Origin: Desulfitobacteriaceae bacterium
Lineage (GTDB): Bacteria; Bacillota; Desulfitobacteriia; Desulfitobacteriales; Desulfitobacteriaceae
Assembly: GCA_049302575.1 (NCBI GenBank)
Contig: JBAQMG010000027.1
Location: 840 to 64,839, forward strand
Length of the DNA stretch: 64,000 nucleotides
Direction of reading: 5' to 3'
This document shows positions 53,754-55,831 of the stretch, in pieces. Under the pieces are notes generated by a model, which was not told where the DNA came from, searched no databases, and saw only the letters and a list, made by a program, of their open reading frames with translations. The stretch's first letter is position 1. Every line of letters starts with the position of its first letter. The position numbers were made by a program, and so were the translations under genes.

Positions 53754-54092
53754 ATGCCTTATTTAACGACGGGTATGTTGGGTAACACCTCGGTTGAGGG
53801 CGTTAGACAGAGTTCAACGCTCTCAGTAAATATCTCGAATGTTGATACTTCTACAGTAGCTATTCAAGTTGAGGGGTTTTTTCAGAGTGGAACAACAAAA
53901 ATGAAGTATGTAGAAGAGTTTTTCACTCTTAAAGCAGGAACAGTGGCCTTGAAGAATTATATCGTCCCATTTAATGCCTTTGAGTTTGTCTTCTTTGTTA
54001 GCTCTCAGGCGGTAAAAGTCTCTGTATGGAGTAAAGACGTTAATGGAAATCTTACTTCAGCTCATTTGGTAGTGGCCGAAGCAAGCGCCTGA
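53754..54092 (+). CDS. Small uncharacterised protein, paralog 1 of a three-member tandem family
   Basis: 112 aa with a strong RBS (TTAGGAGGTTA). It shares with the next two genes the pattern MP.LTTG...NT.VEGVR.SSTLSVNISN.DTSTV..Q.EGFFQSGTTK.KYVEE.F.L.AG.V...NY...F.AFEF.F.VSS.AV.V..W.KD..GNLT.AH.VVA.E. Confidence 0.8.
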   Translation: MPYLTTGMLGNTSVEGVRQSSTLSVNISNVDTSTVAIQVEGFFQSGTTKMKYVEEFFTLKAGTVALKNYIVPFNAFEFVFFVSSQAVKVSVWSKDVNGNLTSAHLVVAEASA

Positions 54093-54159
54093 ACAGTAAC
54101 GAAAATCGGACAAGTACAATATAATGTATAAACCCATAACTTAGGAGGTTAGAAAAAAT

Positions 54160-54504
54160 ATGCCTGATTTAACAACGGGTTTGTTTAATAACACCCCAGT
54201 TGAAGGTGTTAGACCGAGTTCAACACTCTCGGTAAATATCTCGAATGATGATACTTCTACAGTGGATGTTCAAATTGAAGGATTTTTTCAAAGTGGAACG
54301 ACAAAGGTGAAGTATGTAGAGGAGCTTTTTCCCCTTACAGCAGGTAGTGTGACCCAGAGAAACTATTTCGCCCAATTTGATACCTTTGAGTTTCAATTCA
54401 CGGTTAGCTCAGGGGCTGTTGAAGTCACTGCTTGGGGAAAAGACGCAACGGGAAATCTGACAACAGCCCATAGGGTAGTTGCCCAAGAGGTTAACCCATT
54501 TTAA
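54160..54504 (+). CDS. Small uncharacterised protein, paralog 2
   Basis: 114 aa. Its upstream sequence is nearly identical to that of paralog 1 (aacccataacttaggaggtta). It is about 60-65% identical to paralogs 1 and 3 over the shared domain. Confidence 0.8.
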   Translation: MPDLTTGLFNNTPVEGVRPSSTLSVNISNDDTSTVDVQIEGFFQSGTTKVKYVEELFPLTAGSVTQRNYFAQFDTFEFQFTVSSGAVEVTAWGKDATGNLTTAHRVVAQEVNPF

Positions 54505-54541
54505 CGAGAAAATATTATAAATAATGTAAGGAGACGAGAGA

Positions 54542-55831
54542 ATGGCTGAGTTAACTACCGGATTAATTGAAAATACACCGGTCGCCGGTGTAAGACCAAC
54601 GTCAACGCTTACAGTAAAAATCACCAACGATGACACAATTGCCGCTAACATTGAAATTTTGGGTTTTTTGGTGTCAGGAACTACGAAGACACAGTATGTT
54701 GCGGAAGCGTTTGCTTTGGCGGCGGGGGATGTTGCAACCAGAAATTATTTTGCGCAGTTTGATGCTTTCGAGTTCCAGTTCATTACTAGTTCCAACGCTG
54801 TGGAAATCTCGGCTTGGGGAAAAGATGCTGCAGGGAATTTGGTCACAGCTCATCGCCTGCTAGCTGCAGAACTTGATCCAATAGCTTTTCAAGGGGCCAC
54901 AGGAGCCACAGGAGCCACAGGTGCAACAGGAGCCACAGGAGTCGATGGAGCGACAGGAGCAACAGGTGCGACAGGAGCCACAGGTGCGACAGGAGCCACA
55001 GGTGCGACAGGAGCTACAGGTGCCACAGGAGTCGATGGAGCGACAGGTGCTACAGGAGCAGCAGGAGCCACAGGAGCCACAGGAGCTACAGGTGCCACAG
55101 GAGTCGATGGAGCCACAGGAGCTACAGGAGCTACAGGAGCCACAGGAGCTACAGGAGCTACAGGAGCTACAGGAGCCACAGGAGCCACAGGAGCCACAGG
55201 AGCTACAGGAGTCACAGGAGCTACAGGAGCTACAGGTGCCACAGGGGCTACAGGTGCCACAGGAGTCGATGGAGCCACAGGTGCGACAGGTGCGACAGGT
55301 GCGACAGGAGCGACAGGTGCTACAGGAGCCACAGGAGCCACAGGTGCCACAGGTGCCACAGGTGCCACAGGTGCCACAGGAGCGACAGGAGCCACAGGTG
55401 CCACAGGAGCGACAGGAGCCACAGGAGCAGGTTTGGCGGCCTACGGTTATGTTTATACACTTGACGCAGTGGCTCAAGTTGTTGCTGGCGGAGCAGATGT
55501 GATATTTAGCAATAATGGTCCGCTTGTAAACGAAACCCACACTGCTGGTACCGCCCCGGTAACCGTTACACTTGCCGGTAACTATCAGATTGACTATACC
55601 GTAAGCATAACTGCAGGTGTAGGTGCAGCATTAGCTATTGCAGTGAATGGCGCAGTCATTGCATCCACTCCAATTTCAGCGTTGGTCGCTACTGGTCAAG
55701 TACCGGGTCAGGCAATTCTACTACTTGCCGCAGGGGATGTCATTACGCTGAGGAACGACTCCGCTACCCCGATTACACTAACTGCTTCACCCGAGGTTGG
55801 AGCACAAATGACTATTGATAAATTAGATTAA
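54542..55831 (+). CDS. Collagen-like (Gly-Ala-Thr)n protein with a paralog-family N-domain and a BclA-C/C1q-like C-terminal globular domain
   Basis: 429 aa. Residues 1-117 are homologous to the two preceding proteins. Residues 118-294 are about 59 uninterrupted G-X-Y triplets, mostly GAT with 4 GVD, 1 GVT and 1 GAA. Residues 295-429 are a beta-rich domain ([10 protein letters not shown]...[11 protein letters not shown]....[13 protein letters not shown]...ITL....[11 protein letters not shown]). That domain resembles C-terminal domains of Bacillus/Clostridium BclA-type exosporium proteins. Confidence 0.85.
54893..55423 (+). repeat. 531-nt 9-nt-periodic coding repeat (GGN GCN ACA)n
   Basis: Units GGAGCCACA, GGTGCGACA, GGAGCTACA and GGTGCCACA are mixed. 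Four GGAGTCGAT (GVD) punctuations occur at about 54938, 55028, 55100 and 55262. The repeat generates spurious long ORFs in other frames and on the minus strand. Confidence 0.95.

Follow-up and report, generated by a model that had tools for sequence, protein, structure and literature searches.

Fibres on the surface of endospores govern clumping, sticking and the meeting of spores with hosts or minerals, and what is understood of them so far comes only from the Bacillus cereus group and a few clostridia. Among the described systems, A-ENA (PF26595) uses a domain that occurs alone and as a domain-collagen-C1q 'ruffle', with other passenger domains as well (PMC13111695, Sleutel, Sogues & Remaut 2026), and F-ENA is built from a DUF4183 subunit, its F-Anchor carrying the subunit domain C-terminally and its F-BclA using a docking element (PMC12357932, Sleutel et al. 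2025). In Clostridium taeniosporum a putative sigma-K promoter stands before each paralog-collagen pair of the P29a-GP85-P29b-CL2 locus, the products of which are strongly expressed late in sporulation (PMC5749712). Here we describe a locus of three consecutive plus-strand genes, S1, S2 and C, in a 64,000-nucleotide stretch of DNA from a Desulfitobacteriaceae bacterium (assembly GCA_049302575.1, contig JBAQMG010000027.1, positions 840 to 64,839; hereafter the window, in whose coordinates positions are given unless otherwise stated). The three genes share a domain of about 115 residues, the N-domain, which stands alone in S1 and S2 and is fused in C to a collagen-like stalk and a BclA-like head. 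By analogy, this module probably works like an ENA or nap module, while lying outside the known subunit families.

The original prediction, made by a model from the letters alone, had recognised the three tandem paralogs, two of them consisting of nothing but the domain, and the open reading frames (ORFs) agree with it, at the following positions:

53754-54092, plus strand: S1, standalone paralog, N-domain alone, 112 aa (ORF; AGGAGG ribosome-binding site at 53737-53742)
54160-54504, plus strand: S2, standalone paralog, N-domain alone, 114 aa (ORF; family hidden Markov model (HMM) E 4.8e-67)
54542-55831, plus strand: C (ORF3), collagen fusion protein, 429 aa (ORF)
54542-54886, plus strand: N-terminal family domain of C, aa 1-115 (family HMM E 6e-57 over residues 1-113)
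54893-55432, plus strand: collagen-like stalk of C, aa 118-297, 60 G-x-y triplets (Pfam Collagen 6.2e-27; Tandem Repeats Finder; triplet count)
55433-55831, plus strand: BclA_C / C1q-TNF-like head of C, aa 298-429 (Pfam PF18573)

An AGGAGG or AAGGAG ribosome-binding site lies ahead of each gene. The N-domains align without internal gaps and are 66% identical between S1 and S2, 52% between S1 and C and 64% between S2 and C, S2 being the paralog closest to the N-domain of the fusion; S1 matches the family HMM at E 3.5e-60. An HMM built from Paenibacillus and Bacillus-type relatives only, with no Desulfosporosinus sequence, also matched S1, S2 and C (E 1e-26 to 1e-37), and the similarity of the three is thus far beyond chance. 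No further copy of the N-domain was found in an HMM search of all six-frame ORFs of the 64 kb. S1 is identical (100%) to NCBI WA131_11785 of a Desulfitobacteriaceae metagenome-assembled genome (MAG), and since the same gene arrangement is present in isolate genomes, e.g. that of Desulfosporosinus youngiae (CM001441.1), it is not a MAG assembly artefact.

The absence of cysteine that had been noted for the shared domain extends to the whole of S1, S2 and C. The stalk of C had been described as (GAT)59, and indeed it is an uninterrupted run of triplets, although the exact count did not hold: residues 118-297 comprise 53 GAT, four GVD and one each of GAA, GVT and GAG, and Tandem Repeats Finder reported a 9-nt period with 59.7 copies at 54892-55428. 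Long ORFs in the other frames and on the other strand at 54860-55540 were rejected as artefacts of this repeat. The BclA-like nature of the head is upheld by the BclA_C family (PF18573), which matched residues 309-428 with an E of 1.2e-16 and 61.2 bits, against a cut-off of 38 bits; the best PDB sequence match of the head is 9h38, a 148-aa chain deposited as 'FliK' (E 0.0018).

The proteins of the window were scanned against Pfam at E<=1, ten divergent family members at E<=0.1, and NCBIfam was searched at E<=1. The N-domain had no significant match in Pfam-A, NCBIfam or PHROG. In Pfam, DUF3992 was absent from the window proteins at E<=1, DUF4183 (PF13799) was absent from both sets at their respective thresholds, and the N-domain matched neither PF26595 (A_ENA) nor the ASRT family; the exosporium leader TIGR03720 was not matched either, the NCBIfam scan giving only collagen-adhesin models. 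Against the PDB sequences, profiles of 3 and of 72 sequences found nothing below E 0.02. The Pfam, NCBIfam and PDB-sequence searches thereby bear out the earlier view that the N-domain is not Ena/DUF3992, ExsFA/BxpB or the BclA N-terminus, and in Pfam, NCBIfam and PHROG the profile searches found no known family, including no characterised non-spore family. We found no description of the N-domain family, or of an exosporium or appendages in Desulfosporosinus, in the literature.

Monomer models of S2 made with AlphaFold2 (AF2) from alignments of 30 and 72 sequences, with a predicted local distance difference test (pLDDT) score of 90.4 and 88.8 respectively, show the same 8-strand all-beta sandwich. 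In Foldseek searches of the PDB, the best structural neighbour of both models was Thermotoga TM1070 (1nc7), with a template modelling score (TM) of 0.66-0.67 and an E from 3.6e-4; the second was the Anabaena sensory rhodopsin transducer (ASRT, 2ii7), with a TM of 0.5-0.6. Across the pair, the Foldseek E is 4e-4 to 1e-3, the identity 10-12% and the root-mean-square deviation ~5 A. These proteins share with the N-domain a size of ~115 aa and an all-beta fold, but they are cytoplasmic proteins of non-sporulating bacteria, and the N-domain has no Pfam ASRT (PF07100) match; the resemblance most likely reflects fold-level convergence or very remote ancestry. The weaker matches are generic sandwiches: carbohydrate-binding modules (CBMs), PA14, PirA, viral jellyrolls and, at poor TM, TNF/C1q. 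Ena1B (7A02), F-ENA, BxpB/ExsF and TasA were not among the 50 matches listed in either PDB search, and a structure search of BFVD reached a TM of at most 0.57, with no convincing viral relative. The best-conserved segment of the family is formed by residues 1-18, where 10 of 18 positions are conserved at >=80%, vs 21 of 92 elsewhere (70%-non-redundant set), and which carry the motif M-x-x-L-[ST]-T-G-P-I-x-N-x-x-V-x-G-x-R. No Lys stands out as conserved in the family.

The family is small: among 1.84 billion representative proteins scanned exhaustively with HMMER, only 171 clusters matched at E<=1e-3. The named members come from Desulfosporosinus, Desulfitobacterium, Desulfocucumis, Acididesulfobacillus, Paenibacillus, Cohnella, Peribacillus, Priestia, Rossellomorea, Fictibacillus and Radiobacillus, all of which we take to be endospore-forming genera; no protein of the B. 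cereus group is among the named matches. In the 150 clusters listed, 36 are standalone proteins of ~112-130 aa, 24 join the N-domain to collagen with or without a head, 33 join it to a non-collagen head, 6 carry it at the C-terminus of beta-helix or SBBP-repeat proteins, and 50 are fragments; it is also found, rarely, C-terminal to propeller domains. The collagen fusions of the fetched loci end in at least 10 unrelated head types, including BclA_C-like (14), YVTN beta-propeller (9), BclB-like 'IPYASG' (5) and beta-helix heads. No signal peptide, LPXTG or SLH was seen in the family sequences read, the beta-helix and propeller proteins included, and such an extracellular-type architecture without a signal peptide in Bacillota would be a signature of assembly by the mother cell.

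The NCBI names seen among the family matches are all 'hypothetical protein' or apparent misannotations. The standalone protein P0057 is called 'Flagellar hook-length control protein FliK', a name also borne by 9h38, the closest solved BclA_C-like chain, and P0105 is called 'acyl-CoA hydrolase'. Two divergent members, P0259 and P0262, carry the UniRef name 'Exosporium protein C', which is probably an automatic label: a published quantitative PCR primer for Brevibacillus laterosporus exsC had no exact match in the genome contigs searched, cluster look-ups of 20 members gave no characterised ExsC, and a single-sequence search with P0259 found only itself. Both D. hippei DSM 8344 (L016, L040, L042, L053, L056, L075) and the MAG UBA8487 (L017, L027, L049, L050, L080) have multiple separate N-domain loci with different heads, and the presence of five to six or more loci per genome indicates a lineage-specific expansion of the family.

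Set against the described systems, the locus is most easily compared with A-ENA 'sporesilk', with which it shares the split into a domain alone and a collagen fusion (here the 36 and 24 clusters, of 150 listed, given above). This is analogy and not homology, given that the A-ENA subunit is an alpha-helical hairpin with isopeptide cross-links and the N-domain is all-beta, with eight strands in the models. F-ENA likewise has a small, trimer-compatible beta-sandwich of ~100 aa as its subunit, the trimers of which stack axially into a filament, a conserved N-terminal segment and a family distributed over Bacilli and Clostridia, and S1 and S2 begin with 'MP' as in F-ENA. However, the hook M-P-psi-psi-$-P-psi is not found in S1, S2 and C, which start with MPYLTTGM, MPDLTTGL and MAELTTGL, and C carries a whole subunit domain at its N-terminus instead of a 7-residue hook, with no exosporium-leader anchor. 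The S- and L-ENA (Ena1A/B/C and Ena3A; DUF3992) are also built from tandem paralogous beta-sandwich (jellyroll-class) subunits of ~115 aa, and the collagen-C1q tip protein L-BclA shares the connector of its subunit; in contrast to the cysteine-free S1, S2 and C, they rely on disulfide-linked N-terminal connectors (PMC12357932).

The BclA/BxpB (ExsFA) nap of the B. cereus group shares with our locus a Thr-rich collagen repeat, a BclA_C head, adjacent rhamnose-pathway genes, a small partner protein as foundation and, as far as the predicted promoters go, a sigma-K-type promoter logic (PMC4750369). Thus C has two of the hallmarks of BclA, the collagen region and the BclA_C head, but the third, the exosporium leader (TIGR03720) within an N-terminal domain of ~38 residues, which docks on BxpB/ExsF, is replaced by a folded domain of 115 aa, and the candidate partners of C are paralogs of its own N-domain instead of BxpB. 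The C. taeniosporum locus is loosely similar in that genes for paralogous head proteins alternate with genes for collagen-like glycoproteins; however, P29 is a protein of 269 aa related to DUF11-repeat proteins, and the collagen proteins of that locus lack the P29 domain. Since the N-domain has neither the sequence features of DUF3992, DUF4183 and A_ENA nor their chemical hallmarks, it belongs to none of the known subunit families. The suggestion that the anchoring or assembly principle may be new was therefore overstated, because the same grammar has been published for A-ENA and related ones for F-ENA and L-ENA: what is new is the subunit fold and the family, whereas the design principle is already known.

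The pairing of free and fused copies recurs well beyond the window. In loci from 82 sources, the Bacilli loci being drawn only from contigs encoding known members, we counted 82 standalone copies vs 62 collagen fusions. About 30 Desulfitobacteriaceae loci show the order S-S-C or S-C, and in 19 Desulfosporosinus-type loci two standalone genes are followed by the collagen fusion, so that the triplet is a conserved unit in Desulfitobacteriaceae. In these 19 loci, 56 of 57 domains have their nearest relative in another genome within their own positional class; S1, S2 and the domain of C are therefore old, separately maintained paralogs, which argues for distinct, non-redundant roles. In D. youngiae, the same sugar genes as in the window are followed by a 120-aa gene, a 114-aa gene and two fusions, one of 513 aa (domain, collagen, BclB-like head) and one of 518 aa (domain, collagen). 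A 117-aa standalone gene precedes a domain-collagen gene within an Rml/aminosugar/glycosyltransferase island in Peribacillus frigoritolerans, and in Paenibacillus sp. IHBB 10380 a 118-aa gene precedes a collagen fusion of 1085 aa. In Paenibacillus sp. FSL H8-0122 (locus L003), a domain-collagen-C1q-like gene divergently adjoins a gene of the A_ENA family, located in the coordinates of that locus at:

9262-9573: A_ENA gene, 103 aa (PF26595)

A second fusion (domain-collagen-propeller) lies 5 kb from the C1q-like one. Around the A_ENA gene there are also three paralogs of 691-697 aa and three more genes of 621-882 aa, with no Pfam match, and the surroundings may form a large spore-surface gene neighbourhood. 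In more than 25 of the loci (in the range L007-L081), the contig breaks off within the collagen stretch of the fusion. Short-read assemblies are systematically broken by collagen repeats, with the result that draft genomes and MAGs often lack the heads and the downstream genes, and loci of this type are under-represented in MAGs.

The region upstream of S1 offers an indication of when the module may be expressed, with one feature as the candidate:

53692-53720, plus strand: putative sigma-K-type promoter of S1, AACC-N16-AATACAATA (19-locus alignment, consensus match)

The 19 aligned S1 upstream regions share a conserved block, GTAAC..AAA..GGACATGAACAATACAATAA..AACCCATAATTTAGGAGGT, of the form mACm-N16-(C/A)ATAcaaTA, in D. 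youngiae CATACAATG, which can be compared with the sigma-K consensus [a/c]AC[a/c]-N16-CATA-N3-TA (PMC5749712). With one mismatch allowed, this consensus was found at -60 to -62 in 16 of the 19 loci, the background of the same pattern being 0.156 per kb per strand in the window. The implied leader of S1 is ~27 nt long, and those of sigma-K-dependent exosporium genes in B. thuringiensis are 24-33 nt (PMC4750369). A second and perfect sigma-K match, AACA-N16-CATAATTTA (53709-53737), overlaps the proposed promoter, lies at -45 and is perfect in 11 of 19 loci. It was rejected as a working promoter: with only 16 nt between the end of its -10 element and the ATG, it would give a nearly leaderless mRNA from which the Shine-Dalgarno sequence is missing, and it is probably a non-functional by-product of the sequence. 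The spacer of the proposed promoter contains a GGACATG element (53702-53708); GGACA[AT]G, which we take to resemble the SpoIIID box TAGGACAAGC, occurs in the spacer of 14 of 19 S1 promoters and 10 of 19 S2 promoters, with a background of 0.109 per kb per strand.

Ahead of S2, in the 67-nt spacer that separates it from S1, the promoter block recurs in degenerate form. The S2-C spacer is only 37 nt long in the window (24-54 nt in 18 of the 19 loci) and holds no promoter-like match with fewer than two mismatches, so C is probably co-transcribed with S2. The upstream sequences thus suggest a separate promoter for each of S1 and S2, and read-through from S2 into C. No strict sigma-E, sigma-F or sigma-G consensus was found upstream of the window genes, and a sigma-70 scan did no better than shuffles. 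Overall, the predicted promoters are suggestive of mother-cell expression under sigma-K.

The start of the window contains the end of the dcw cluster (murG, murB, murA, ftsQ) and ftsZ (6104-7162), followed by the sporulation sigma operon and then by sepF, divIVA and ileS; given the presence of spoIIGA-sigE-sigG, the host is a spore-forming member of Bacillota. From ~27 kb to 63 kb the window is occupied by a glycosylation island, in the middle of which S1, S2 and C are found. It encodes TPR-GT2 and GT4 transferases, two DUF6385 proteins, RmlB/RmlA/RmlD-like and Polysacc_synt_2 enzymes, UDP-sugar dehydrogenases, epimerases and a UDP-GlcNAc 2-epimerase. The features nearest to our subject are:

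7412-9890: spoIIGA-sigE-sigG, directly after ftsZ
48143-53438, plus strand: RmlB-like dehydratase, RmlA-like nucleotidyltransferase, RmlD-like reductase, Polysacc_synt_2 dehydratase and double GT2 (Pfam)
55993-57129, plus strand: GT2 glycosyltransferase, 378 aa (Pfam Glycos_transf_2 4.4e-23)

The sugar genes at 48143-53438, which also precede the paralog cluster in D. youngiae, probably supply and attach glycans, and a GT2 gene is likewise found downstream of the collagen genes in that species. Elsewhere in the island, two proteins with a C-terminal DUF6385 and no evident signal peptide (27421-28443, 340 aa; 35385-36065, 226 aa) bracket three or four opposite-strand TPR-GT2 genes (28878-35361), and they may be further substrates or parts of the same surface-glycosylation system. 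On the minus strand, 42243-43802 encodes a 519-aa YVTN/YNCE-type beta-propeller that lacks a signal peptide and has, at its C-terminus, a region of ~200 aa containing Cys; this copy has no N-domain, and the same type of propeller is joined to the N-domain via collagen in L003, L040, L051 and L053. Also on the minus strand, a 653-aa ORF with no Pfam match (40117-42078) combines a low-complexity middle rich in Ser/Thr/Pro/Gln with a charged, helix-like C-terminus bearing an EREREREKEK run. Just 3' of the collagen gene, a Phd/YefM antitoxin and ParE toxin pair (57579-58278) sits between glycosyltransferase and sugar-dehydrogenase genes, and methyltransferase and glycosyltransferase genes are found at the equivalent place in D. 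youngiae. Finally, at 46378-46911 there is a 177-aa ORF whose sole domain is the central one of a UDP-glucose/GDP-mannose dehydrogenase; it overlaps the preceding GT4 gene at the end of the latter, and may be what is left of a gene or an ORF with a wrongly called start.

We think it fairly probable that S1, S2 and C form a module of the spore surface that is made by the mother cell, in which the free domains are a scaffold that the fusion joins via the same domain. The indicators (spore-former taxa, absence of a signal peptide, sugar island, sigma-K-like promoter and the A_ENA neighbour) are indirect, and together they point to the spore surface. The products would be made in the mother cell late in sporulation, and S1 and S2, each on its own sigma-K-type promoter, would thus probably be in excess. 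Being small beta-sandwich subunits, they would build up a scaffold, a short fibre or shaft or else a basal array, on the outermost layer of the spore. In C, three N-domains would be brought together by the triple helix of the collagen, and the fusion would enter or cap the scaffold through the same subunit-subunit contacts, for which the conserved N-terminal arm would be the most likely docking element; given the lack of Cys in S1, S2 and C, the contacts would be non-covalent or would rely on a non-disulfide crosslink. The fusion would then project a Thr-rich collagen stalk of ~50 nm (180 residues at ~2.8 A per residue, a figure taken from PMC12357932), O-glycosylated by the products of the flanking rhamnose and glycosyltransferase genes, with its trimeric BclA/C1q-type head turned outward as an adhesive or interaction surface. 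The Thr residues of the triplets are candidate O-glycosylation sites, judging from BclA as an analogue and from the sugar genes on either side. The sequences and models show the layout of the genes, the N-domain family with its fold class, the conservation of gene order, the modular architectures and the promoter-like footprint; we infer spore localisation, expression timing, co-assembly, trimer geometry and glycosylation from context, and the trimer compatibility of C is presumed only from its fusion to collagen and C1q heads.

Several observations weigh against this proposal. In most loci, the mismatch to the sigma-K consensus falls on the normally invariant C of the -10 element, and the Bacilli members L003-L006 have no clean sigma-K or sigma-E consensus upstream. 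Proteins in which the domain is internal (P0204, P0215, P0217, P0238) retain the N-terminal motif, which makes it an element of the fold that need not be a free hook, and the AF2 monomer packs the arm on its own sandwich; the arm may be one that docks between subunits and was modelled in cis, or no more than a core element. Lastly, lectin-like folds of the CBM and PA14 types are among the Foldseek neighbours.

It could also be that the N-domain serves only to trimerise and register the collagen helix, like the V domain of streptococcal Scl, the standalone proteins then acting as chaperones, caps or decoys that regulate the amount of collagen. The domain directly precedes the triple helix with a linker of ~10 residues, and in P0125 it is joined directly to a BclA_C-like head, where a trimer is expected, both of which would fit such a role. 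However, BclA_C heads already nucleate trimers in BclA, and the N-domain is also found on non-collagen proteins and C-terminally on beta-helix and propeller proteins, where no collagen registration is needed. Two conserved and separately promoted groups of standalone proteins would also be much machinery for a chaperone, and in the loci these proteins outnumber the fusions (82 vs 62). We therefore regard this alternative as unlikely.

Slightly less credible still is a lectin-like role, in which the N-domain would anchor the fibre and heads on a polysaccharide made by the island and the standalone proteins would coat or cross-link the glycan. The position of S1, S2 and C within the glycosylation island of ~35 kb would suit it, as would the Foldseek neighbours CBM4, CBM16, the Bacteroides thetaiotaomicron CBM BT0996-C and the PA14 adhesin Cea1A (TM 0.3-0.5), but these lectin-type matches are weak (E ~4e-3 to 2e-2, mostly at low TM), and neither TM1070 nor ASRT, the best matches, is an established lectin. 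O-glycosylation of the GAT repeats, as in BclA, explains the sugar genes equally well, and the tight pairing of free and fused genes is not expected of a glycan anchor. A prophage-derived collagen-like tail fibre or a vegetative adhesin unrelated to spores is very improbable, even though ORF3 matches many PHROG 'tail fiber' and 'collagen like minor tail' families and the BFVD matches include collagen-repeat and tail proteins, given that all PHROG matches run through the collagen and head region and none through the N-domain, that the flanks hold sugar metabolism genes and no phage genes, that the locus is chromosomal and syntenic across species, that neither a signal peptide nor a wall anchor is present for display on vegetative cells, and that the named members are all from spore formers.

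Returning to the spore-surface module, a bolder version of it would see in the N-domain family a fifth class of subunit of endospore appendages or naps, structurally distinct from the others: a Cys-free beta-sandwich that self-assembles via its arm, with non-covalent contacts or a non-disulfide crosslink, and serves as a universal 'plug'. We put this forward tentatively, as less likely than not. If it is true, Desulfitobacteriaceae, Paenibacillaceae and some Bacillaceae would use the N-domain to fit their spores with interchangeable glycosylated collagen stalks, propellers and beta-helices, and the locus would for the first time give molecular access to the spore surface of environmental sulfate reducers. 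The locus belongs to an unannotated family that repeats the 'subunit plus collagen ruffle' design with a different fold, in carriers (Desulfosporosinus, Paenibacillus and Peribacillus among them) on whose spore surfaces there has been almost no work. As a compact system of two ~12 kDa subunits with at least 10 swappable distal heads, it could be of use for spore ecology and for spore-display engineering.

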